In this document: positions 3,730 to 62,786 of the stretch, piece by piece
Layout of the letters: every line of letters begins with the position of its first letter
Numbering within the stretch: the stretch's first letter is position 1
DNA from: Escherichia phage VEc74
Sequence record: MT932213.1
Direction: 5' to 3' (one strand)
Length of the DNA: 64,000 nt
Notes under the pieces: model-generated
Databases searched by the model: none
The model's input: only the letters and a program-made list of their open reading frames with translations
What the model was told of the DNA's origin: nothing
Program-made: the position numbers and the translations under genes

Positions 3730-5148
3730 TTATGGATAGGTATAGATGATACCAGTTTCTAAAGCAGTTTTATGAATGATGTATCCATTACGCGATTCTT
3801 GGACATCAACTTCTGGATAATCTTTCATCATCTTCTGAAGAGTGTAACGATGCAGGTAGTATTTACTATCTGGATCTTCAGTTTTCCAATCTTTACCTTC
3901 TTCAGTCATTTTTTGAATTTCATCCATAACCCACCAACCACACCAGATGTAAGCTGAGCTACGGTGTGGAAGAGGATGAACATAAGGTAATTCACCTTCT
4001 GGTTCTGGAGCAACTTTATCAGTTACCTGAACTTGACCTTCTGCCGTAATAGTTTTGCTATCATAATCAGCAGCAGTAACAGTTGCAGTAACTTCAATAG
4101 TTTGACTTCCAATAGATGAGGTATCAACGGTATATACATTAGTTGACCCTTCTACAGGAGAAGAATCTTTCTTCCATGAATATTCAATTTGCGCTTCTTC
4201 TGGAGCATCAGTGACATTAGCAGTAAATGTAGCCGAAGCATCTTGTTGAACGTTAATAGAAGGAGGAGTCAATGTAACCTGTGGATTCATTGTCTTCTTA
4301 TTAACCGTTAATGATACTTCATTAGAAGTAACTTCCTTTTCATTGTAATTTTCAGCAGTTACTTGAGCTACGCATTTAATTCTTTTTACTCCACTTGTAG
4401 TTGGAGTATAGTTAAATGTAGAGTTAGTTTCTCCACCAACTTGTGAATCATCTACATACCACTGATACGTAGCAGATGCTCCATCAGGTTGAGAAGCTAA
4501 GGCAGCAGTAAATTGAACTGGGGTTCCGATAACTCCCGCTGGAGGACTATCAGGAGTTACTGCCAAAGTAGTTGTCTGCTCCTTTTTATTAACAGTCAGT
4601 GATACTTCATTAGAAGTAACTTCTTTTGCATCATAATCTGTCGCGGTTACTTGAGCCACACACTTAATTGTTTTAACTCCGCTTGTGGTAGGAGTGTAAT
4701 TGAATGTAGCAGAAGTTGCTTCGCCCACAGGAGAACCGTCAACGTGCCATTGATACGTAGCAGATGCACCTGGTGGCTGCGAAGTTAAGGCAGCGGTAAA
4801 TTCAACAGCTGTTCCAATCACTCCAGCAGCAGGACTATCAGGAGTTACAGCTAAGGTGGTCGTTTGTGTCTTATTTTGAACTGTGATAGTTGTAGTAGCT
4901 TCTGCTGTTTCAGCATCAGTATCTGGGACTGGGTTTGTTGCAACTACTTTAATAGTCTTTTGACCGGCAGGTCCTTTTAGTACATAATTAAAAGTTGCTT
5001 CAGCTCCATCTTGTGGAACATCATCTACAGTCCAAGCATATGTAATAGGTCCATCTCCAGTTTGACCACTGGGTGTAGCAGTAAACTGCTGAGTCTGATC
5101 TATAACTCCAGTAGGTGTTTTAGGAGTTATATCAACTGTAAAAGCCAT
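3730..5148 (-). CDS. hoc: Highly antigenic outer capsid protein Hoc, with one extra Ig-like domain relative to T4 Hoc
   Basis: 472-aa ORF; N-terminal MAFTVDITPKTPTGVIDQTQQFTATPSGQTG and C-terminal capsid-binding region ...YIWCGWWVMDEIQKMTEEGKDWK... match T4 Hoc (376 aa in T4 as I recall). Confidence 0.88.
   Translation of the reverse strand: MAFTVDITPKTPTGVIDQTQQFTATPSGQTGDGPITYAWTVDDVPQDGAEATFNYVLKGPAGQKTIKVVATNPVPDTDAETAEATTTITVQNKTQTTTLAVTPDSPAAGVIGTAVEFTAALTSQPPGASATYQWHVDGSPVGEATSATFNYTPTTSGVKTIKCVAQVTATDYDAKEVTSNEVSLTVNKKEQTTTLAVTPDSPPAGVIGTPVQFTAALASQPDGASATYQWYVDDSQVGGETNSTFNYTPTTSGVKRIKCVAQVTAENYNEKEVTSNEVSLTVNKKTMNPQVTLTPPSINVQQDASATFTANVTDAPEEAQIEYSWKKDSSPVEGSTNVYTVDTSSIGSQTIEVTATVTAADYDSKTITAEGQVQVTDKVAPEPEGELPYVHPLPHRSSAYIWCGWWVMDEIQKMTEEGKDWKTEDPDSKYYLHRYTLQKMMKDYPEVDVQESRNGYIIHKTALETGIIYTYP
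4288..4863. repeat. In-frame tandem duplication (2 x 288 bp) inside hoc encoding two near-identical 96-aa Ig-like domains
   Basis: Protein repeats TTTLAVTPDSP[A/P]AGVIGT...EVTSNEVSLTVNKK occur twice consecutively; DNA copies are visibly near-identical. Confidence 0.85.
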
Positions 5149-16959: not shown

Positions 16960-16990
16960 TTTGTGTTCCTCATGTTATGTCAGTAAGACT

Positions 16991-17020
16991 ACTATAACAC
17001 AACATAAGGAACTTGTAAAC
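16991..17020 (-). promoter_or_regulatory. T4-type early promoter (-35 GTTTAC, 18-bp spacer, -10 TATAGT)
   Basis: Read on minus strand; part of a 50-bp promoter-leader module also present at 32517-32566. Confidence 0.6.
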
Positions 17021-19077
17021 TACATTTTGAACTTTTTAGACATTCCGTTGATGTTAACCAAAGAAGCTAAGATTTGAGAAACTTCGTTTTCCTCTTCTTT
17101 TGATTCTTCTACAAGGAATTGATTAAATCCAACCATTGGACGAACTTCACCAGTTTCCATTAGATGGTCGCCATCATATACTGATTCTTCTAATTGTTCA
17201 GAAGGAGGAACGATTGTACCTTCGATTAGATACTTGTTATAAGCCGTTTCTTTCATAAAGTACGTACTTACTTTATTAATCTTCAGTAAAATTCCACGAG
17301 GTAGAATAACTTCAGCTTCTGATGGAAATCCTGATAAATGACCTGGAACGATAACTTTGATTCGCTCAGCTCCTTTAATTACCATACCCACGCTAGTTTC
17401 AGCATCTTCATTGGCATATGTAGAATGACTACCCATATGCATCAAATGTTCTGCATCAACGGAACCTTCTCCTTCACCAGAAAATACTGCGCCGGAATCA
17501 TCTAGAGCCATATAGTTTTTACCATGCTCACCGAAGATATTTGGTTTAAGCGATGTCGATACGAAGTTCTTGAAATAGAACATTTTGTTTTCAATGTTAT
17601 GACGCAAAGTTTTAAAGGTAACTTCTTGTCCACGGTAAAGTGTAGTTCCTGGAGGAAGAACTGAACCTTTAGCGAATGCAGAATCCAACGTCTCGATGTG
17701 CTTAATAGCTCGTTCCATATATTCTTCACGGGTAGAATCTGGTTTACCCAAAAGGAACGAGTTCATTTCAACATATGAATCTGCACAATAATCTTCAATT
17801 ACATCAGACTCAGCCTGAGTCAGTCCTTTTGGAGTTACTTCAGTACTTGCATATTCATATGCCTGAGCAGCAGATTCATTAATCAATTTATAAATGCCAT
17901 TCATGACAAATTGAATAATAGCTGTCTTTTCATCTGGCGTAGCATTAGAACCTTTAACCAAATCATTGATAATTTTCTTAATAACATCAAAGCTATTAGA
18001 AATATTAATGTCAGCAAGATCGCTTAAAATTTTATCAGTTTTATAATCAAAGAATTCTTTATTCTTTAAATATTCTTGAGAACCTTGATATGTTATATCG
18101 CTTTGCAACTTGATAGATGGATCACGTAAACGTGCATGGGCTAATGCAATATGATTTCGGAAGTTTTCTAGTTCATAATCGCTAGATTTAAAACGAGAAG
18201 CACTTCTCATACCACCAATAGCTCCTTTGTTGAAGTTTGAACCAATCTGAATAACGCCAGAGTTCATTGGTCCTTCTGCTTTATATACCGGAACTTTAGA
18301 TTCAAACTCTTGATATTTCTTAGCAGCGAAGCTATCACCCTGAAGTGAAGCATCAACAGTAGAATATTGAGCTTGTGCTGCTAATCGACGACTAATTTTA
18401 GTTTTCTGAATAACAGCTTGATCCGTGCGCTTATCATTTTCTAAAGCAATAGAAGCAGCAACAGCGACAGCTTTAGGAACAGCATTACCTGTTTTAACGT
18501 CTACATAAACATCACCGACCTTTGATTCAACTTTTGTGAATAACTCAGTTGAAATAGGAGGTACACCTGGAATGTCTTCTAAATTGGCATTTTTACGGTA
18601 AACCATAATATATGCGTACTTTTTATCATAGTCCCAGATTTCCTTTAAAAGAACATATCGACCTGCTCCTTTAGTACGTACTAAACGGTCAGCAATAACT
18701 TGCATTTGACGAGCTGCGCCATTTGTTTTACTTTTTAGTACGCGGAATAAGCATGCGTCGATTTTATACTGCTTCATTGTTTGAAGAGCAGTATCAAAAA
18801 CCGCATTAATGACGCCAATTGGATTTCCACCCAAGTTTCTAAGCTTAACCAGCGATAATTTCTCGTTGACGCCTATCATTACGATATGCATCATTTTGTC
18901 GCCTGGCTTAACGTTTTTATTTGTATCACCGCCAGAGGTGTATGTACAAAATCTAAATCCAGGAAGCACACTTTCTTCGCCGGCTTGAATAGCAAAAATT
19001 TGTGGTATTTTATGCTTAGGATTTAAGTTAACAACCGGCGCCGAAGCGCCGTCAAATAATTCTGTAATAAGTTCCAT
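17020..19077 (-). CDS. Alt-like ADP-ribosyltransferase paralog (T4 alt.-2 position)
   Basis: 685-aa ORF; N-terminus MELITELFD... and blocks GxGRYVLLKEIWDYDKKYAYI, EDIPGVPxISTELFTKVESKVGDVY shared with Alt; C-terminal R / STS / EAEVILPRG ART motifs (YRGQ, FVSTSL, SEAEVILPRG). Confidence 0.8.
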   Translation of the reverse strand: MELITELFDGASAPVVNLNPKHKIPQIFAIQAGEESVLPGFRFCTYTSGGDTNKNVKPGDKMMHIVMIGVNEKLSLVKLRNLGGNPIGVINAVFDTALQTMKQYKIDACLFRVLKSKTNGAARQMQVIADRLVRTKGAGRYVLLKEIWDYDKKYAYIMVYRKNANLEDIPGVPPISTELFTKVESKVGDVYVDVKTGNAVPKAVAVAASIALENDKRTDQAVIQKTKISRRLAAQAQYSTVDASLQGDSFAAKKYQEFESKVPVYKAEGPMNSGVIQIGSNFNKGAIGGMRSASRFKSSDYELENFRNHIALAHARLRDPSIKLQSDITYQGSQEYLKNKEFFDYKTDKILSDLADINISNSFDVIKKIINDLVKGSNATPDEKTAIIQFVMNGIYKLINESAAQAYEYASTEVTPKGLTQAESDVIEDYCADSYVEMNSFLLGKPDSTREEYMERAIKHIETLDSAFAKGSVLPPGTTLYRGQEVTFKTLRHNIENKMFYFKNFVSTSLKPNIFGEHGKNYMALDDSGAVFSGEGEGSVDAEHLMHMGSHSTYANEDAETSVGMVIKGAERIKVIVPGHLSGFPSEAEVILPRGILLKINKVSTYFMKETAYNKYLIEGTIVPPSEQLEESVYDGDHLMETGEVRPMVGFNQFLVEESKEEENEVSQILASLVNINGMSKKFKM

Positions 19078-19080
19078 GAT

Positions 19081-21171
19081 TTATCCTTGAACGAACTTGT
19101 AAGGCATGTTTGTAATATCTATGCAAGACGCAATAATTCCAAGAGATGATTCTACTTTCTGTTTAACATTTGATGAAACAAATGATGCAAAGTCAACTCT
19201 ATCTTCTATATCACCTGTCATTGTAACCAATTCACCAGTTTCCATTAAATGGTCTCCGTCATAGATTACCGATTCAGTGAGTTCTTCTGTGGTCATAACT
19301 TCAGCTTGAATGAGTTTTGTATTATTAGACGTGGTTCCGTCATTATTAGAAGCATCAATTATTTTATTAACTTTGACCATCAATCCGCGCGGTAGAATAA
19401 CTTCAGCTTCTGTTGCTATTCCGAGACTTCCTGGATATACAACATTAACTTTATGAGCTCCATCAATTGCCCATCCTATTTGAACTTTAACGTATTCAGG
19501 ATTTTCTTTATACGCTCTTATTTCGTTTGGATTAATAGTTATTCCTTCTTCATTTTTATCAACTGTTAATTCATTACGAGCTTCTGGTTCTAAAAGACCA
19601 ATACCAGCATGTGTAATTCCAAAACGTCCAAAAATGATAGGAGTTAAAGAAGTAGATACAAAATTTCTGAAATAGAACACTTTATTTTTAACTAGTGCTT
19701 CGTATATAGGAGCAGTCATACTTTGAGCACGATAAACTGTAATGCCTTCCGGTATGCGGTCACCATTTTCAAAAGCTGAATCTAAATTATTTATAGCAGA
19801 TTCAATTTCTTTTTCACTCATTACATCATATCGTTCTGGATTGTAACGACCTAAAAGAAGATTATTAATGTCTGTATATCCTGAACCGCAATATTCTCTA
19901 ATGCCACGCTTTTGTGATGGAGTATATTTAGAACCATCACGGGCAATAGTAATATCAATCATTGGACCAGCACCAATTCCAGAAAAGCTATAAATCATTC
20001 GTTTGAGGAATTTAGTTTTTGCTGCATTCCAGGCATTTTTAGTTATTTCTCCCCAGACTTCATCTGGCTGCCCTTTACGAGTTTTATTATGTTTATCAAG
20101 CCAATTATCTTTATATTCTTCAAAGAGTTGATTAACAGCTGCTGCGTATTTCTCTAAACATTTTATTGAAGTAGTTGGTTCATTTTTAATCGCATTAAGA
20201 ATTACATCTTTAATTTTTTCAGAAACTTCATCAACCTCACTTTTTGAAAAGAATTTATATTCATAGTGAAGTTCATTTGCAGTTCCTTCAGCAATAATTT
20301 TTGCTGCCTTAGTTTTAGAAGCTAATGAATTAATTCCAAGCTTCATTTCTTCTGCTTCGGGAATTAAAGGAGCAGTAGCAGGTTTATTAAAATTAGCTGC
20401 GGTAGATTCATACTTCTGGAATAATTCACTTTCAAATCTAGAAGATTCTAATGATTGACTTTGCGCAATTGCTCTACGGGAAATTTTAACTTTAACGATT
20501 ACAGCTTGATCAGAACGTTTATCATTTTCTTGCGCAATAGATGCTGCAATTGCCTCATTTTTAGTTACTTGAGCTCCAGTATCTTTATTGATATAAACAT
20601 CACCGACCTTCGATTCAACTTTAGTAAAGAGTTCGGTACTAATTTCCGGAACTCCTGGAATGTCTTCTAGTGATACATTTTTGCGATGTATAAGAATATA
20701 TGCATACTTTTTATCATAATCCCAGAGTTCCTTAAGAAGGACGTATCTGCCACCTGAACGACTACGGATAAGTCTATCAGCAATAACTTGAATTTGTCGA
20801 GCTTGACCAGCAGTTTTAGACTTAAGAATACGGAGCATACAAGCATCAATTTTATATTGACGCATTGTTTGCATTGCAACAGTAAAAACTGAATTGATAT
20901 AATTAATTGGACTTGGACCAAGACCTTTCAATTTAGCAATTGAACCTTTAGCAGTTAATGTAAAAGGAACAATATGCATCATTTTATCGCCCATCTTTAA
21001 ATCACGATTAGTATCACCTCCAGATGTATAGGTACATAAACGAAAGCCTGGTTGTTCAATTGCATCATCAACGTGAACTGAAAAAATTTGCGGTATTTTC
21101 TTCTTTGGATTTAAGTTTGTAATCGGAAGAGTAGTATCTTCGTCAAATAATTCTGTAATGAGTTCCATCAT
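19081..21171 (-). CDS. alt: Alt ADP-ribosyltransferase (head-packaged, RNA polymerase-modifying)
   Basis: 696-aa ORF; MELITELFDEDTTLPITNL...KKKIPQIFSVHVDDAIEQPGFRLCTYTSGGDTNRDLKMGDKMMHIV matches T4 Alt; ART motifs YRAQ, FVSTSL, ATEAEVILPRG. Confidence 0.9.
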   Translation of the reverse strand: MMELITELFDEDTTLPITNLNPKKKIPQIFSVHVDDAIEQPGFRLCTYTSGGDTNRDLKMGDKMMHIVPFTLTAKGSIAKLKGLGPSPINYINSVFTVAMQTMRQYKIDACMLRILKSKTAGQARQIQVIADRLIRSRSGGRYVLLKELWDYDKKYAYILIHRKNVSLEDIPGVPEISTELFTKVESKVGDVYINKDTGAQVTKNEAIAASIAQENDKRSDQAVIVKVKISRRAIAQSQSLESSRFESELFQKYESTAANFNKPATAPLIPEAEEMKLGINSLASKTKAAKIIAEGTANELHYEYKFFSKSEVDEVSEKIKDVILNAIKNEPTTSIKCLEKYAAAVNQLFEEYKDNWLDKHNKTRKGQPDEVWGEITKNAWNAAKTKFLKRMIYSFSGIGAGPMIDITIARDGSKYTPSQKRGIREYCGSGYTDINNLLLGRYNPERYDVMSEKEIESAINNLDSAFENGDRIPEGITVYRAQSMTAPIYEALVKNKVFYFRNFVSTSLTPIIFGRFGITHAGIGLLEPEARNELTVDKNEEGITINPNEIRAYKENPEYVKVQIGWAIDGAHKVNVVYPGSLGIATEAEVILPRGLMVKVNKIIDASNNDGTTSNNTKLIQAEVMTTEELTESVIYDGDHLMETGELVTMTGDIEDRVDFASFVSSNVKQKVESSLGIIASCIDITNMPYKFVQG

Positions 21172-25543: not shown

Positions 25544-25579
25544 GATGTTTAATTACGGTACAGGTATATAATATCATAT

Positions 25580-25608
25580 CCTGTACCAAAGTAAACAATT
25601 ATTTTACT
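25580..25608 (-). promoter_or_regulatory. Early promoter (-35 GTTTAC, 17-bp spacer, -10 TATTAT) embedded in a perfect 8-bp inverted repeat
   Basis: Inverted repeat ggtacagg...cctgtacc at 25569-25599 brackets the -10 region. Confidence 0.45.
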
Positions 25609-29540: not shown

Positions 29541-29570
29541 ATAATATCACAACTCTACCGTAAAGTAAAC
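29541..29570 (-). promoter_or_regulatory. Early promoter (-35 GTTTAC, 18-bp spacer, -10 TATTAT)
   Basis: Read on minus strand upstream of the 175-aa ORF. Confidence 0.5.
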
Positions 29571-32508: not shown

Positions 32509-32536
32509 AAAGTCCTCATGTTATGTCAGTAAGACT

Positions 32537-32566
32537 ACTGTAACACAACACGAGGGACTTGTAAAC
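32537..32566 (-). promoter_or_regulatory. Early promoter (-35 GTTTAC, 18-bp spacer, -10 TACAGT), copy of the 16991-17020 module
   Basis: 45 of 50 bp identical to 16971-17020, including leader and RBS. Confidence 0.6.
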
Positions 32567-39501: not shown

Positions 39502-40328
<827 letters not shown>

Positions 40329-40338
40329 ATTATTTTCC

Positions 40339-40581: not shown

Positions 40582-40607
40582 TTTATTCTCCTCAAGTTGA
40601 TAAGGCT

Positions 40608-40637
40608 ATAGTATCATTACAATAGCCTGTTGTAAAC
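40608..40637 (-). promoter_or_regulatory. Early promoter (-35 GTTTAC, 18-bp spacer, -10 TACTAT)
   Basis: Read on minus strand. Confidence 0.55.
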
Positions 40638-40639
40638 AT

Positions 40640-40867
40640 TTATTTTTGAATTAAGCCCATATAAAATTTAGCATCTTCAGGATACATGCCATCACAATAC
40701 TCATTGGTCATAAAACTGATAAGGTCTTCAAGAGGACCTTGGACTTCAATTTGAATACTAAAGAATTGGGTATCTTTAATGTAAGCCATACTCAAAGAAG
40801 GATAACGATTGCGGATAACTTCATAAGTGTATTCAAAATCAACAATATCAATATTAACCTTAGCCAT
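40640..40867 (-). CDS. Small acidic protein, paralog of the 41336-41566 ORF
   Basis: 75-aa ORF from [26 protein letters not shown]...; RBS GAGGAAAATAAA; track ORF is longer but its start lies upstream of the promoter. Confidence 0.55.
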
Positions 40868-40896
40868 TTTATTTTCCTCATGTAGTTGATAGGGTA

Positions 40897-40926
40897 ATAG
40901 TATCACACTATTACCATGATGTAAAC
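40897..40926 (-). promoter_or_regulatory. Early promoter (-35 GTTTAC, 18-bp spacer, -10 TACTAT)
   Basis: Read on minus strand. Confidence 0.55.
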
Positions 40927-41291
40927 TACTTTTTGAAAGTTTTTCGCAAAAGTTCAATGATTTCATCTACATTGTTTTCGTCTACAATGCAGTGAATTTT
41001 TGTTACGCCAGAAACTGTGTCTTCGGCTCCATCTTCTTCAGAAGTCGGTTCTTTATACTCGCGAAAACAATGAAATTCGTCTTCACAAACGTTAAAGTAA
41101 AAATGCTTTCCATTTGCGCATTCAATGTGTTTTATTACTCTAAATCCATCAACAAAGAAAGCTTCTTTAACTTCAAACCATCCACCATTTTCTTGAATAA
41201 TTTTAACTATTGATGAATTAGAACGTGGGCGATAATTAATAAATGTATCAATAAGTCTTGGAACAAGCTCATACTTTTTGCCAATATACAT
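40926..41291 (-). CDS. Hypothetical protein
   Basis: 121-aa ORF with RBS GAGGAAAAC. Confidence 0.5.
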
Positions 41292-41335: not shown

Positions 41336-41566
41336 TTATTGTTCAATCAATCCCATGTAAAATTCTGCGTCTTCAGAATCCATACCATCACAATATTCAT
41401 TAGCCATAAAGCGGGTGAGGTCTTCAAGAGGACCTTCAATGACAATAGAAAAATTGCAATAATTGGGATCATCGTGAATACTTGTGATACTAAGTTCAGG
41501 ATAACGATTACGAATAATCTCTTCAATATATTCAAAATCAACGATGTCAATATCAACTTTAGCCAT
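41336..41566 (-). CDS. Small acidic protein, paralog of the 40640-40867 ORF
   Basis: 76-aa ORF from [26 protein letters not shown]...; RBS AGAGGAAAATAAT. Confidence 0.55.
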
Positions 41567-41609
41567 ATTATTTTCCTCTTTAATCATCAGCAGTATTGCC
41601 GATAGTTGT

Positions 41610-41639
41610 ATAGTACCACAGCATGCTTTGGTTGTAAAC
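41610..41639 (-). promoter_or_regulatory. Early promoter (-35 GTTTAC, 18-bp spacer, -10 TACTAT) within a repeated cassette
   Basis: 72-bp cassette 41601-41672 is near-identical to 58283-58354. Confidence 0.6.
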
Positions 41640-41670
41640 CGTTTTGTGAAAAAATTTTTGAAATAAAAAA

Positions 41671-41689
41671 GGGGACCTCTAGGGTCCCC
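41671..41689 (-). terminator. Rho-independent terminator after gene 32 (ggggacctctagggtcccc plus T-run)
   Basis: Perfect 8-bp stem followed by TTTTTTATTT on minus strand. Confidence 0.8.
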
Positions 41690-41711: not shown

Positions 41712-42620
41712 TTAAAGGTCATTCAAAAGGTCATCCAGGTCCGTGTCATCAGCACTAGATGAACTGCCAGAGCTTGAGCTCATAAAATCATCTTCAGTTT
41801 TTGTTTTGAAGTCATCAACATTGAATGCATCCAAATCATCAGCAACTTTATCAGCTTTCTTAGCGGCAGTTGCTGCGGCACCACCCATAGCAGCAGTTCC
41901 CATAACTTGACTGAACTTAGTGCTCAGTTCTTCAAACGATTTGAATTTATCTTTAGAAGTCATTTCAGAAAGGTCAACCATTTGTTCGAACAGTTCTTTC
42001 TGGAAAGATTCATCATCAATGTTTGGAATCGCAGATTGATTCAGGAATTTAGATTCATCGTAGTTACTAAAACCAGAAACTTGTTTAACTTTCAGTACAA
42101 AGTTAGCACCTTCCCACGGACAAGTTACATCAACTGGAGTTTCACCCATTTCAACATCAACCGCAATCATTGCATTGATTTTATCCCAGATTTTCTTACC
42201 GAAACGGTATTTAAATACTTTACCTTCGTTTTCTGGAGCAGCTGGGTCTTTTACAACAAGAATATTAGCCCAGTAAGAAGTTTTACGTTTAACAAGACTG
42301 TACTCTTTATTGTCAGTGTTGTACAGATCATTTTTACTAATGTATTGACATACTGGGCAAGAATCGTAATCACCGTGGGTAGATGAACAATTTTCGATAT
42401 ACCATTTACCGTTTTTCTTGAAACCGTGATTTACAAGAATTGCGAATGGTGCTTGTTCATCATTTTTAGACGGAAGAAAACGAATTACTGCTTGACCGTT
42501 ACCCGCATTGTCGAGTTTCAGTTTCCACTCGCCTTTATCTTCAGAAGAAAAACCACCTTTATTTCCAGCCAGTTTAGCCATTTGTGCAGCGAGTTCAGCA
42601 GTAGATTTACGTTTAAACAT
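41712..42620 (-). CDS. 32: Single-stranded DNA-binding protein gp32
   Basis: 302-aa ORF; [50 protein letters not shown] and acidic Ser/Asp-rich C-terminus match T4 gp32. Confidence 0.95.
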
Positions 42621-42703
42621 TTTTATTTCCTTTTTAATTTAATTAACAGTTGGTGCTATGACGATGTATGACCTCATAGCTGGTCAGTGAGATAATTATA
42701 ATC
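42621..42703 (-). promoter_or_regulatory. Gene 32 translational operator: pseudoknot plus unstructured A/U-rich tract in the 5' leader
   Basis: Minus strand reads ...UGACCAGCUAUGAGGUCAUACAUCGUCAUAGCAC... then UUAAUUAAAUUAAAAAGGAAAUAAAAAUG, matching the T4 autoregulatory leader as I recall it. Confidence 0.65.
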
Positions 42704-57614: not shown

Positions 57615-58250
57615 TCACAGTTCAGATGCTACAGCGATTACTACTTCAATGTTTTCTGCCGAGCGTTTAATGTCAAGATACACATTACCGTTTTTAGCGA
57701 TTTTACATGACATTCCGATGTCAGTAAATTTCTGAATATGATGTTCCATCATTTTGTATCCAAAAATTCGCATATTTCCATTGTTGTTAATTTCAAAATT
57801 ACGAATTCCGTGAGTGCGTTTTTCTAAAATAGCAAGATAGTTACTGCGATAAGTTTCAACCTTTTTAAGAACAAATCCATTTTCATCTAAAAGTTTTAAC
57901 ATGAGGTCTTTATCTTCTTCCATATCGGAAGTAATCTCGCGAGCTTTACGAGTTGCTCGTTTTTTCAGCAGTTCCGGAGCATTTTCCTGTGCATATAAAG
58001 TTGCTGCATTTGAAATAATATCCTGAGCTTCGCCAGTAATGATTAATCCATCACCAGATTTCTCCACCAGGCCTTTTTTAATCAATACCCCAATATTACT
58101 ATTAACTACTGCGTTACCTAAATCTGGATGCACCTCACGAACTTCTGCAGCTGTAATGAAATCTTTCTTAGCAATAGTAATTAAAATCGCAGCAGTTTTT
58201 TCATTCAGAACATCGTTAGAAGCTTTGATGATGTAAGTTACTTTAGACAT
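57615..58250 (-). CDS. motA: Middle transcription activator MotA
   Basis: 211-aa ORF; MSKVTYIIKASNDVLNEKTAAILITIAKKDFITAAEVREVHPDLGNAVVNSNIGVLIKKGLVEKSGDGLIITGEAQ matches T4 MotA. Confidence 0.92.
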   Translation of the reverse strand: MSKVTYIIKASNDVLNEKTAAILITIAKKDFITAAEVREVHPDLGNAVVNSNIGVLIKKGLVEKSGDGLIITGEAQDIISNAATLYAQENAPELLKKRATRKAREITSDMEEDKDLMLKLLDENGFVLKKVETYRSNYLAILEKRTHGIRNFEINNNGNMRIFGYKMMEHHIQKFTDIGMSCKIAKNGNVYLDIKRSAENIEVVIAVASEL

Positions 58251-58291
58251 TTTCTAATCTCCGTAATTCTGTATCAGTAGTTGATAGTTGT

Positions 58292-58321
58292 ATAGTACCA
58301 CAGTATGCTTTGGTTGTAAAC
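58292..58321 (-). promoter_or_regulatory. Early promoter (-35 GTTTAC, 18-bp spacer, -10 TACTAT) for motA, within repeated cassette
   Basis: 72-bp cassette 58283-58354 near-identical to 41601-41672. Confidence 0.6.
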
Positions 58322-58352
58322 CGTTTTGTGAAAAAATTTTTGAAATAAAAAA

Positions 58353-58372
58353 GGGAGAGCCTCGGCTCTCCC
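58353..58372 (-). terminator. GC hairpin (gggagagcctcggctctccc) plus T-run
   Basis: Perfect 8-bp stem followed by TTTTTTATTTC on minus strand. Confidence 0.75.
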
Positions 58373-58377
58373 TAAAA

Positions 58378-58527
58378 TTACTGCATGACTGTGATAACTG
58401 TCATGATAACACGTTGAATTCCGAACGCAAGAAGACCTCCTGCTACGGCTGGAACAACACCTAACCCCACCAGTAAAATGCTACCAGATACTAATGCAGC
58501 GCTTGTAATACCAATGAATGGACTCAT
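58378..58527 (-). CDS. Small hydrophobic peptide (49 aa; motA.1 position), not in ORF track
   Basis: Hand translation MSPFIGITSAALVSGSILLVGLGVVPAVAGGLLAFGIQRVIMTVITVMQ; ATGA overlap with gene 52 stop. Confidence 0.4.
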   Translation of the reverse strand: MSPFIGITSAALVSGSILLVGLGVVPAVAGGLLAFGIQRVIMTVITVMQ

Positions 58528-59852
58528 TTGATTTCCTCTAAATCTTTAGTGTATTCAGTAACTACATCAGTAGTTTTCCAATATTCGTTTTCTTCTTTTT
58601 TAGCTTTAGCTTCTTCAGCAAGTTTCTTTGCTTCATCGGAAGTCATATGAAAAATATTCATTCCAACTAGTTTATCAACATAAGAAGAATACATATCGAT
58701 TTTCGAAAGTTCTTCGGTCAGTTCTTTACGAGTTTTACCCTGTACAACAATTTCACCTGAAATTACTTTCTTAATGAAATGTGCCTTGGCAAAGGCTAAA
58801 CGAAAAGCTGACTCAGTTTCTTTAATTTTGTTATCAATTCGTTTTTGGACATAAGTTTTACGAACTTCAACGAAGTCTTTAATTAAATCAACTACGTTAT
58901 CGTAAACTTGCAGTTTTCCTTTCTCATTAATGACGGTAATATTCTGAGAACGACGTTCAATCAATCCGAAGTCTTTCATAATTTTTGCATGACGTTCTTC
59001 TTCATTATCGCTCAAAGAATATTCTTTGCGGAATTTAACTTTGAATCCAAAACCGTGCTCACCGCAAGCATCATCCCATGTAATGAAGCCTTTATCTTCA
59101 AGTGGGTCTAAAATTTTACTCACGTAAGTTTCACGATCATACTTATATGGAATCTCAGTGATATGCATTTGAGTTCGTGAAGTAAACTTATATGTTCCAC
59201 GAATTTCATACTGCCCATCAATTTCAACAACTTCACCACGAAATTCTGGGAATTCTACTTTCGGTTTAGTTACTTTCTTTCCTTGAAGAGCTTGCAATAC
59301 AGCTTTCTTGACAGAAGAAACACTATGAGGAAGAATGTAAGTTGCATAACCAGTTGCAATACCGGAAACACCATTAAGAAGAACGGTAGGAATAATAGGC
59401 AAATAGAAAGCAGGCGGAATGTGTTCTTTATCTTGATGTACCGGAGCATATTCAGTATCTTTATATACGTTATAGAAATTTTTACTTACACGAGCAAAAA
59501 TATAACGACTTGCCGCTGCCTTTTGGACAGTACGAGAACCGAAGTTTCCTTGGCCATCTAACAAAGGAAAGTTATTATTCCAAGTGTTAGCCATCAAAGC
59601 ACCTGCGTCTTGTGCAGAGTTTTCGCCATGGTGATATCCAAGGTCCGCTACACCACCTGCAATAGAAGCGAGTTTGTGAAACTTATCTTTATTTCCTCGT
59701 GCTAAATCAAGGGCTCGAGCAATAACAAATCGTTGAACTGGCTTAAATCCATCAATCATATTTGGAATGGCACGATTTTCAACCGTGTACATAGCATAAG
59801 CCAATGCTTCATTATCAATGATACTTTTTAAATCGCGATTATTCAGTTGCAT
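58524..59852 (-). CDS. 52: DNA topoisomerase II medium subunit gp52
   Basis: 442-aa ORF, T4 gp52 length; GyrA-like active-site Tyr region AASRYIFARV. Confidence 0.9.
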   Translation of the reverse strand: MQLNNRDLKSIIDNEALAYAMYTVENRAIPNMIDGFKPVQRFVIARALDLARGNKDKFHKLASIAGGVADLGYHHGENSAQDAGALMANTWNNNFPLLDGQGNFGSRTVQKAAASRYIFARVSKNFYNVYKDTEYAPVHQDKEHIPPAFYLPIIPTVLLNGVSGIATGYATYILPHSVSSVKKAVLQALQGKKVTKPKVEFPEFRGEVVEIDGQYEIRGTYKFTSRTQMHITEIPYKYDRETYVSKILDPLEDKGFITWDDACGEHGFGFKVKFRKEYSLSDNEEERHAKIMKDFGLIERRSQNITVINEKGKLQVYDNVVDLIKDFVEVRKTYVQKRIDNKIKETESAFRLAFAKAHFIKKVISGEIVVQGKTRKELTEELSKIDMYSSYVDKLVGMNIFHMTSDEAKKLAEEAKAKKEENEYWKTTDVVTEYTKDLEEIK

Positions 59853-61462: not shown

Positions 61463-61679
61463 AACTTTTTTAAAAATATTCGTAATAAATGTGAATACCA
61501 ATCACTACTGCCGAAACTTGCGCAACCCACCACGCACAAGCAATAAGTACAGAATTAAAAATTTTCATAATAACCTCATCACAAAAGTAAATGTTAAACA
61601 AATCAATGGAATACTAATTAACCAAACAAAACACCACCATAATGAACTCATAGTTCAATCTCAACGATTTTCATTTTAC

Positions 61680-61886
61680 TCAATAATCCGCTAAAAGATC
61701 AACGATTGCATCACGAAGACACTTATTCGCAATACGTTTAAGAGCAATTTCAGTTTCTGGAGCATTTTGAATAATCATCGAATTCAACTCAGCCTCAGCA
61801 AACTGAAGTTCTTTAACTAATTCAGCTTTATATTTTCCTTGCCCTTTCTTAGCTTTTGCTCGTTTTAATTCAGCTGTAGTAAACAT
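61680..61886 (-). CDS. Hypothetical protein (68 aa from internal Met; track ORF extends to 61985)
   Basis: MFTTAELKRAKAKKGQGKYKAELVKELQ...; RBS GGAGAA; promoter at 61921-61950 lies inside the longer track ORF. Confidence 0.45.
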   Translation of the reverse strand: MFTTAELKRAKAKKGQGKYKAELVKELQFAEAELNSMIIQNAPETEIALKRIANKCLRDAIVDLLADY

Positions 61887-61920
61887 TTTATTCTCCAAAT
61901 CCGTATCAGTTGATAGTTGT

Positions 61921-61950
61921 ATAGTACCACGGTCCTTGTGGTATGTAAAC
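61921..61950 (-). promoter_or_regulatory. Early promoter (-35 GTTTAC, 18-bp spacer, -10 TACTAT), third copy of the ttgatagttgtatagtaccac cassette
   Basis: Read on minus strand. Confidence 0.55.
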
Positions 61951-61966
61951 TGTTTTGTGAAATTTT

Positions 61967-62524
61967 TTAAATGGAAAGATACCATCCGTTGTAGTTGCTT
62001 TTTCTTACAACTTTACGAAGGTCTTCTCTGTCACCGATGAACTTCGGAGTGTACTGGATGACACCTGGATGAATTTCTTTAGTGTTGAATATAATTATAC
62101 AGTCCGCGACCTGGTGATTTAGAATGGGCCCTAGATTTATTCCAGAACCATATGGATACTCTCCGCTGCATCCTGTTGTTACCGAAATCCAACGTGAGTC
62201 AGTTTGATGTGTCTTAACTTCTACACGAAGCCCACAGTATTTTGGATGTGCCAAAACATCCCATGCATATGTGTACGGATCATCGACATCTTCTTGGCCT
62301 TTATTGACATATCCGCTTAGCCAATCTGCCACAAAAAACTCTGCGTACACAGCTATACGGCATCTTTCGATAACTTCTGCCTTATCCTGATTTGGATTTT
62401 GTTTTAAAGAGTATCTTGCAGTATCAGCAATTTTTACCTTCATTTCACCGGTTAAATCATTGTTCGATAGGGTAAATGTCGGAATCTGAAATAGTCTCTG
62501 TAACCCCGGATTCGTTTTCTGCAT
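61967..62524 (-). CDS. denB: Probable endonuclease IV DenB
   Basis: 185-aa ORF, T4 DenB length, at the T4 denB position between ndd.x and rIIB; sequence identity not verified. Confidence 0.65.
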   Translation of the reverse strand: MQKTNPGLQRLFQIPTFTLSNNDLTGEMKVKIADTARYSLKQNPNQDKAEVIERCRIAVYAEFFVADWLSGYVNKGQEDVDDPYTYAWDVLAHPKYCGLRVEVKTHQTDSRWISVTTGCSGEYPYGSGINLGPILNHQVADCIIIFNTKEIHPGVIQYTPKFIGDREDLRKVVRKSNYNGWYLSI

Positions 62525-62786
62525 TTAAACTTTCCTTTTTACCACTAAGATAAGCGTTATACACTTTAAGAGTACCATAGTAAATTCGATCATTTTCATC
62601 TAAAGAATTACGATCAAGTTCATCGAGATTCTTTTTGTCCATGACTATAACATCATTGCAGTAAAGAACTCCAAGTTTTTCATGCCCAAACTCGAATTTA
62701 TTGCAGTACACAATATTAGCATAATGATTACCATGTAGAGAAATTTCTTTTATGTCGGAATCACCGATATTCATACAATAAATCAT
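62457..62786 (-). CDS. Hypothetical protein (denB.1 position)
   Basis: 109-aa ORF overlapping denB 5' end by 68 nt. Confidence 0.4.
   Translation of the reverse strand: MIYCMNIGDSDIKEISLHGNHYANIVYCNKFEFGHEKLGVLYCNDVIVMDKKNLDELDRNSLDENDRIYYGTLKVYNAYLSGKKESLNAENESGVTETISDSDIYPIEQ

Follow-up and report, generated by a model that had tools for sequence, protein, structure and literature searches.

The 64,000 nt of DNA examined here (the window, i.e., the whole stretch analyzed, from Escherichia phage VEc74, MT932213.1) can be assigned by its sequence to a Tequatrovirus (T4-like coliphage), with the early genes on the minus strand. Gene order and products agree with those of T4: the minus-strand open reading frames (ORFs) include frd, frd.1, frd.2, frd.3, 32 and 59 and, further on, motA, motA.1, 52, ndd, denB and rIIB, and the interval at 40.5-43 kb is 95-97% identical to hundreds of T-even genomes. 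A block of sequence recurs at three places among these genes, each time on the minus strand. Copy 1 (41601-41673) carries the frd.3 early promoter and lies between its upstream neighbor, gene 32 (ssDNA-binding protein; 41712-42620, minus strand, stop at 41712), and a 76-aa frd.3 homologue (41336-41566, minus strand, ATG at 41566). Copy 2 (58283-58355) carries the motA early promoter; upstream of it lies a 49-aa motA.1 homologue (58378-58527, minus strand), which is the last ORF after gene 52 (58524-59852), and downstream lies motA (211 aa; 57615-58250, minus strand). Copy 3 (61887-61973) is a promoter-only cassette with leader and Shine-Dalgarno sequence (SD); its UP region lies over the final codons of denB (61967-62524), and it is followed by a 68-aa ORF similar to RB32ORF266c (61680-61886, minus strand). 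A previous sequence-only reading of this DNA had the cassettes flanking two accessory clusters, frd-32 and motA-52; instead, the copies sit at single gene junctions (32/frd.3, motA.1/motA and denB/next ORF, for copies 1, 2 and 3, respectively), and no cluster is bracketed.

The same reading had reported a 72-bp block recurring with one mismatch at 58283-58354, together with a third, more diverged copy, and we could confirm both. A search with the 72-nt pattern matched 41601-41672 without mismatches and 58283-58354 with one (G/A at 41622/58304), while zero matches were obtained in 100 dinucleotide-preserving shuffles. The identity between copies 1 and 2 even extends one base further, to 41673/58355, and the other edge is sharp at 41601/58283. 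In local alignments, copies 1 and 2, including part of the adjacent hairpins, are identical at 78 of 81 positions. The third copy is real but weaker: it shares 55/66 positions with copy 1 and 77/97 with copy 2, the latter likeness running through the 5' leader to the SD. Self-comparison thus revealed identity reaching far past the promoter hexamers. Moreover, the window holds exactly three instances of the frame TTCACAAAACNGTTTACA-N17-TACTATACAACTATC, each on the minus strand, against an expectation of 0. An exact-frame scan of IMG/VR returned 3 contigs only, too few for a survey, for which an annotated phage collection was used in its place. At gathering thresholds, Rfam had no match anywhere in the window, so that no described RNA family accounts for the block.

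Two further repeats were observed in the window. Two tandem minus-strand ORFs (17020-19077 and 19081-21171; 685 and 696 aa) share approximately 70-80% DNA identity in blocks, with a repeat spacing of 2088 nt; from position and size, we take them to be probable tandem alt-like ADP-ribosyltransferase paralogues. In addition, a tandem 288-nt repeat with 76% identity (4294-4869) lies within a coding region and may encode repeated protein domains, perhaps Hoc-like Ig repeats, if judged by map position.

Early promoter anatomy

Judged by their elements and spacing, the three copies are T4-type early promoters. The -35 hexamer GTTTAC and the -10 hexamer TACTAT are located at 41639-41634 and 41615-41610 in copy 1, which ends approximately 9 nt beyond the -10, at 58321-58316 and 58297-58292 in copy 2, and at 61950-61945 and 61926-61921 in copy 3. 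On the minus strand, copies 1 and 2 read in the order hairpin, UUUUUUAUUU, A/T-rich CAAAAATTTTTTCACAAAAC, -35 GTTTACA, a 17-nt spacer ending in TGG, -10 TACTAT and ACAACTATC. All three copies fit GTTTAC-N14-GTGG-TACTAT, in line with the T4 Pe pattern GTTTAC(N14)gtggTAttaT and its TGn before the -10; the spacing of 18 nt between GTTTAC and TACTAT is equivalent to TTTACA-N17-TACTAT with TG before the -10. The hexamers and the 18-nt gap claimed in the sequence-only reading are therefore correct in every copy, and the A/T-rich tract that it described upstream is likewise present in all three, as an UP element preceding the -35 (TTTTTTATTTCAAAAATTTTTTCACAAAAC in copies 1 and 2, ATTTAAAAAATTTCACAAAAC in copy 3). 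The start codons of frd.3, motA and the 68-aa ORF are found on the same strand, 43-54 nt downstream of the -10. In the T4 early consensus, GTTTAC occupies -36 to -31, the UP region is rich in A and the segment before -12 is GT-rich (PMC1524935), and T4 early promoters have been described as 'uber' UP/-35/TGn/-10 promoters with extra conserved regions (PMC2988021). Early transcription from the three copies by the unmodified host sigma-70 RNA polymerase is predicted from this anatomy, from orthology with T4 and from the annotation of others: an early promoter and a terminator are already annotated at the orthologues of all three sites in OL960581 (SA20RB) and LR215723 (fPS-90), and the T4 record Z48569 has -35/-10 signals marked at the motA copy. 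A reading of the plus-strand TGCTTTGG in the spacer as a Mot box of a middle promoter was rejected upon inspection, since no TAnnnT lies at the 11-13 nt that such a promoter requires.

The consensus TTTACW-N17-TAYWAT, proposed for the PeSLs (promoter-early stem-loops) of T4/PST, has 10 matches on the minus strand of the window, where 1.5 would be expected on both strands, and these cluster in the frd-32, arn-motA and ndd-denB regions. All 10 promoters have the -35, the TGn/-10 and parts of the +1 region in common, but only the frd.3/motA pair is near-identical, every other pair being 35-61% identical over 94 nt. Near-identical promoter pairs are nevertheless not unique to frd.3/motA, as a second promoter/leader pair, at 16967-17020 and 32513-32566, is 93% identical over 54 nt at a distance of 15.5 kb and reads GTTTACA...TATAGT/TACAGT...CATAACATGAGGA.

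At several early promoters of the window, the spacer and the first transcribed bases form the arms of a stem-loop that has the -10 box inside the hairpin (16967-17020, 32513-32566 and, on the minus strand, 25568-25595, 29541-29569, 40608-40636 and 40897-40925). The stem sequence changes from promoter to promoter while complementarity is kept, and in 4 of the 10 promoters z ranges from -4 to -6.8 against shuffles. This dyad was discarded as a new feature, since a PeSL subclass of this kind has already been described for RB49/phi1 (PMC2839356); in the PeSLs of T4/PST (PMC4122927), the stem-loops lie upstream of the promoter, whereas placement around the -10 is the RB49/phi1 type.

Terminator hairpins at copies 1 and 2

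Folding revealed a GC-rich hairpin at each of the two near-identical copies, on the minus strand. The one after gene 32 (41671-41689; GGGGACC-CTAGA-GGTCCCC) has a 7-bp stem with 6 GC pairs, followed by UUUUUUAUUU, and -14.3 kcal/mol. The one after motA.1, at the end of the 52-motA.1 unit (58353-58372; GGGAGAGCC-GA-GGCTCTCCC), has a 9-bp stem followed by a U-tract, with -20.1 kcal/mol and z -4.6. In both, the U-tract UUUUUUAUUU comes directly after the stem, and the hairpins lie 22 and 5 nt past the stops of 32 and motA.1, respectively. From stem and U-tract, both are assigned as intrinsic (rho-independent) terminators of the upstream genes; conservation of a terminator behind gene 32 has been described for T4-like genomes (PMC1524935). 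The terminator T-run is part of the shared block and doubles as part of the upstream A/T tract of the promoter. At copy 3, folding detected no GC-rich hairpin, but only a weak 6-bp dyad in the spacer. The sequence-only reading had each of the two blocks directly followed by a GC-rich hairpin of different sequence. Both copies do adjoin such hairpins, and these differ, but they are the hairpins of the genes before them, 32 and motA.1, and in the direction of transcription (minus strand) they precede the promoter instead of following it.

In both terminators, the stems stay the same from genome to genome, while the loops occur in two reverse-complementary forms: the gene 32 loop is CTAGA in VEc74 and TCTAG in RB14 and T2, and the motA.1 loop is GA in VEc74 and TC in EP01 and RB14. 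Such loop reversal looks like a hairpin flip or template-switch polymorphism.

Spacer alleles of the frd.3 promoter

The three sites were aligned from nine genomes, namely the window, T4, bov9_1, SA20RB, fPS-90, EP01, RB32, RB14 and T2. The motA promoter spacer is invariant in all nine and copy 3 is conserved among them. At the frd.3 promoter, conserved flanks (terminator, UP element and -35 before the spacer; -10 and frd.3-specific leader after it) enclose three unrelated spacer cores. Allele (a), ACCAAAGCATACTGTGG, is the core of the motA promoter and is carried by the window, with one G, and by bov9_1, EP01 and RB14, the frd.3 copy of the last three genomes being 100% identical to their motA copy. 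Allele (b), TCCCTGTTCTTCCGTGG-like, is found in SA20RB, fPS-90, RB32 and T2, and allele (c), AGCATAAAGCTTTATGG, in T4. By 39-mer BLAST, allele (b) corresponds to the promoter type upstream of imm.1 (after gene 43) and e.8, and RB32 has an frd.3 promoter almost identical to its own e.8 promoter. Allele (c) corresponds to the promoter at ~54.5 kb of T4, which is identical to the T4 frd.3 promoter over 54 nt and sits at its own locus in 467 records. Paralogues of alleles (b) and (c) are absent from the window; BLAST of public genomes places their donor loci outside it, at ~24, ~54 and ~67-70 kb of the T4 map. As the frd.3 spacer is variable and the motA spacer invariant, the near-identity of copies 1 and 2 is specific to a lineage.

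A census by reciprocal queries combining spacer and frd.3-specific leader assigned ~48 records to allele (a), ~336 to (b) and ~63-68 to (c), out of roughly 500-535; these figures are estimates from coverage and identity bands. The motA-like allele (a) hence marks a minority lineage, approximately 10% of sequenced Tequatrovirus genomes. Its recurrence in ~48 independent records led us to reject an assembly artefact or chimera. Moreover, MLF4, the best match to the frd-32 flanks of the window, has allele (b), so that the spacer change separates close relatives.

Selection for maximal promoter strength might in principle have produced the resemblance by convergence, with no transfer of sequence between loci, since T4 early promoters have an extended consensus beyond the hexamers (PMC2988021), and the -35, TGn/-10 and parts of the +1 region are indeed common to the 10 promoters of the window. 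The other early promoters under the same consensus, however, are just 35-61% identical to the frd.3/motA pair over 94 nt; furthermore, the orthologous frd.3 promoter occurs with three cores that differ at most positions, each of which is base-for-base identical to a different paralogue. Convergence over 13-17 nt three times is not credible, and we give this explanation next to no chance.

It might also be argued that the motA-like spacer is the ancestral state of frd.3, left by an old duplication of the whole cassette, and that the other two alleles are later replacements. The same flanks occur in all alleles, and the direction of change is not readable from nine genomes, both of which would suit such a history. 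Nevertheless, allele (a) ranks last or second last in frequency (~48 of ~500 records), its 100% identity to the motA copy in bov9_1, EP01 and RB14 argues for recent homogenization, and MLF4, the closest flank match, has allele (b). In addition, ectopic replacement would be needed anyway for alleles (b) and (c). We therefore consider an ancestral motA-like spacer unlikely.

For cores of 13-17 nt that are replaced as a whole within flanks conserved at 95-100%, each core matching a paralogue exactly, ectopic non-crossover recombination between cassettes is the best explanation. Crossing over between copies 1 and 2 would remove 16.7 kb of essential genes, 32, 33, 34-38 and motA among them, which would explain why conversion only is seen at these two copies. 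Overall, we find it highly probable that the cassettes are punctuation signals, joining a terminator to an early promoter, that have undergone spacer conversion and can serve as linkers. An intrinsic terminator would end the upstream early/middle transcript (gene 32; gene 52-motA.1), its U-tract would lead into the A/T-rich UP element and then into a very strong sigma-70 T4-type early promoter, and this promoter would restart transcription for the next gene (frd.3, motA or the ORF after denB). The comparative data suggest that a minority lineage acquired the motA spacer core of 13-17 nt in place of the one that its frd.3 promoter had carried. This would most likely have happened by ectopic non-crossover homologous recombination, through patch gene conversion or template switching, with priming by the flanks of 38 nt and 19 nt common to the cassette subfamily; short homologies are known to be used by the T4 recombination system (Singer et al. 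1982, as cited in PMC2839356). The same homology would also make the cassettes linkers for the insertion or replacement of small ORFs, as at copy 3 and in the frd.3' insertion described below. When and in which direction the spacers were exchanged is estimated from the nine aligned genomes and the BLAST counts, and, as the flanks are identical in all alleles, the ends of the conversion tracts cannot be mapped. The exchange may have been intragenomic or have occurred between co-infecting phages, as the sequences would be indistinguishable on that point.

A broader proposal, which we regard as evenly balanced between right and wrong, is that the early-promoter cassettes of T-even phages form a gene-conversion network, in which 13-17-nt cores would be copied over up to ~90 kb through 19-38 nt of homology, with frd.3 as recurrent recipient and the motA, e.8/imm.1 and ~54.5-kb promoters as donors. 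If so, the ectopic recombination postulated by the PeSL model would have left, in this network, a direct trace that can be counted; and if spacer identity also tunes promoter strength or Alt responsiveness, early gene dosage could be rewired with gene content unchanged.

Cassette mosaicism is not confined to the frd.3 site, as the imm.1 promoter of RB32 differs from that of RB14 in both spacer core and leader (AGACTGTTCTTCCATGG with a 'ACGGATTTGGAG' leader in RB32; TCCCTGTTCTTCCATGG with a 'ACTGATACAGAAAAC' leader in RB14).

Gene-content breakpoints and known cassette systems

The part of the window between 39 and 64 kb was compared with seven genomes and the junctions were inspected for gene-content breakpoints. 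There is none at copies 1 and 2 among the eight compared genomes. Three events are bounded by cassettes: fPS-90 has another ORF in place of the one behind copy 3, the replacement beginning 13 nt from the -10; ndd.6, which follows copy 3 in T4, departs from the ORF of the other phages right behind the shared SD and ATG, so that in both genomes the sequences part at the 3' edge of the cassette; and in the window itself there is an insertion between frd.2 and frd.1. This insertion holds an extra frd.3-like ORF (frd.3', 75 aa; 40640-40867, minus strand), which is absent at the corresponding position in 8/8 compared Tequatrovirus genomes and whose DNA is ~75% identical to frd.3 of RB14, bov9_1 and T4 and ~80% to the window's own frd.3. 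Sibling promoter/SD cassettes flank it on the minus strand, one upstream of frd.3' (40865-40933) and the other upstream of frd.1 (40582-40650). The 69-bp cassette, of which RB14, EP01, T2 and other genomes have one copy only, matches both of these intervals; the insertion thus consists of 'ORF plus one cassette', with a cassette copy on either side of the ORF. A contiguous frd.1-P-frd.3-P arrangement is present in Gaprivervirus TH57 at 83.5% identity, which makes TH57-like phages a possible source. Taken together, this suggests that frd.3' is an imported 'ORF plus promoter' module.

The position of frd.3' between two cassette copies resembles an integrated mini-circle, and circular PeSL-ORF molecules are known in RB49/phi1, where a recombinase acting on the stem-loop has been speculated (Arbiol et al. 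2010, PMC2839356). On these grounds, a small mobile element, either MITE-like or moved as PeSL mini-circles by a site-specific recombinase, could be thought to have inserted at the three loci. Against this, the promoter is present at each of the three positions in 9/9 genomes and only the frd.3 spacer core varies; the blocks have neither terminal inverted repeats nor a target-site duplication, and no recombinase is known or was found. In addition, the hairpins at copies 1 and 2 differ in sequence and are hence not part of a common element. The probability of a mobile element is, in our opinion, very small, and punctuation signals altered by ectopic conversion remain the preferred explanation.

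Six of about nine early-region indels or replacements (39-64 kb) have no recognizable early promoter adjoining them: insertions at 40326-40333, 57238 and 61669-61676, a replacement at 40084-40334, segG at 42683, and an indel at 62539-62744. The cassettes thus explain part of the plasticity only. The sequence-only reading had likened them to modules that mediate gene shuffling, with breakpoints expected to coincide with the copies; this holds at copy 3 and at the 40582-40650/40865-40933 pair, but not at copies 1 and 2, and shuffling through cassettes is one contributor to plasticity, as the PeSL authors themselves state, but not the rule.

This kind of cassette is already known: it is the early promoter/terminator punctuation of T4, and a possible part for it in recombination, as a linker, has been published, including for T4/PST; this follows from the sites annotated in public records and from the PeSL concept of 2014. 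In RB49/phi1, PeSLs consist of an early promoter, an AT-rich tract and a stem-loop and end at the SD/ATG of the next gene (Arbiol et al. 2010, PMC2839356); their promoter and terminator activity was verified with reporters, and mini-circles are formed (PMC2839356). The concept was extended to T4/PST as TTTACW-N17-TAYWAT with an AT-rich upstream tract, a stem-loop just upstream and SD plus ATG on the 3' side (Comeau, Arbiol and Krisch 2014, PMC4122927), in a work that also covers the nt-1/KVP40 pair. The likeness to PeSLs drawn by the sequence-only reading is well supported, the copies being T4-type early promoters joined to upstream terminators, as are the PeSLs of T4/PST. In their own sequence, copies 1 and 2 have the features of PeSLs, and copy 3, lacking the stem-loop, is a promoter-only 'half' PeSL in the terms of PMC4122927. 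What is added here are the three mutually exclusive spacer alleles of frd.3, each with an exact paralogous source, as a clean and countable sign of ectopic exchange; PMC2839356 and PMC4122927, the two works considered on this point, hold no description of such evidence. About 500 public genomes could serve to quantify the frequency of exchange and the promoter partners of a mechanism so far backed mainly by indel boundaries.

In T4, the frd.3, motA and ndd.6 early promoters occupy the same sites relative to 32, motA.1/motA and denB, and have the -35 GTTTAC, GTGG/TGn, -10 TACTAT, the UP tract and the +1 region ACAACTATC in common with those of VEc74. The motA copy is base-identical to that of T4 except for one UP-tract base, and copy 3 is identical through the SD, downstream of which T4 has ndd.6 and VEc74 the RB32ORF266c-like ORF. 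The T4 frd.3 promoter, in contrast, has a different spacer core, AGCATAAAGCTTTATGG, and its near-identical partner is the ~54.5-kb promoter, so that the frd.3/motA pair of T4 is not near-identical. A second comparison is offered by T-even phages, whose internal-protein (IP) genes are reported to be flanked by conserved promoter-containing repeats of ~70 bp (Repoila et al. 1994, as cited in PMC2839356 and PMC4122927). According to these citing works, they too are short regulatory repeats beside small accessory genes, proposed to mediate recombinational shuffling in their locus, but they belong to other loci and have another cassette sequence, and their role likewise derives from comparative data. 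Finally, the PeSLs of RB49/phi1 are known with mini-circles and reporter activity, whereas the VEc74 copies are known as sequences. Both are compact terminator/promoter motifs found in many copies amid small early ORFs, some of them at the boundaries of indels or replacements; unlike PeSL shuffling sites, copies 1 and 2 adjoin conserved genes (32, 52 and motA), and it is a short patch within the promoter that varies instead.
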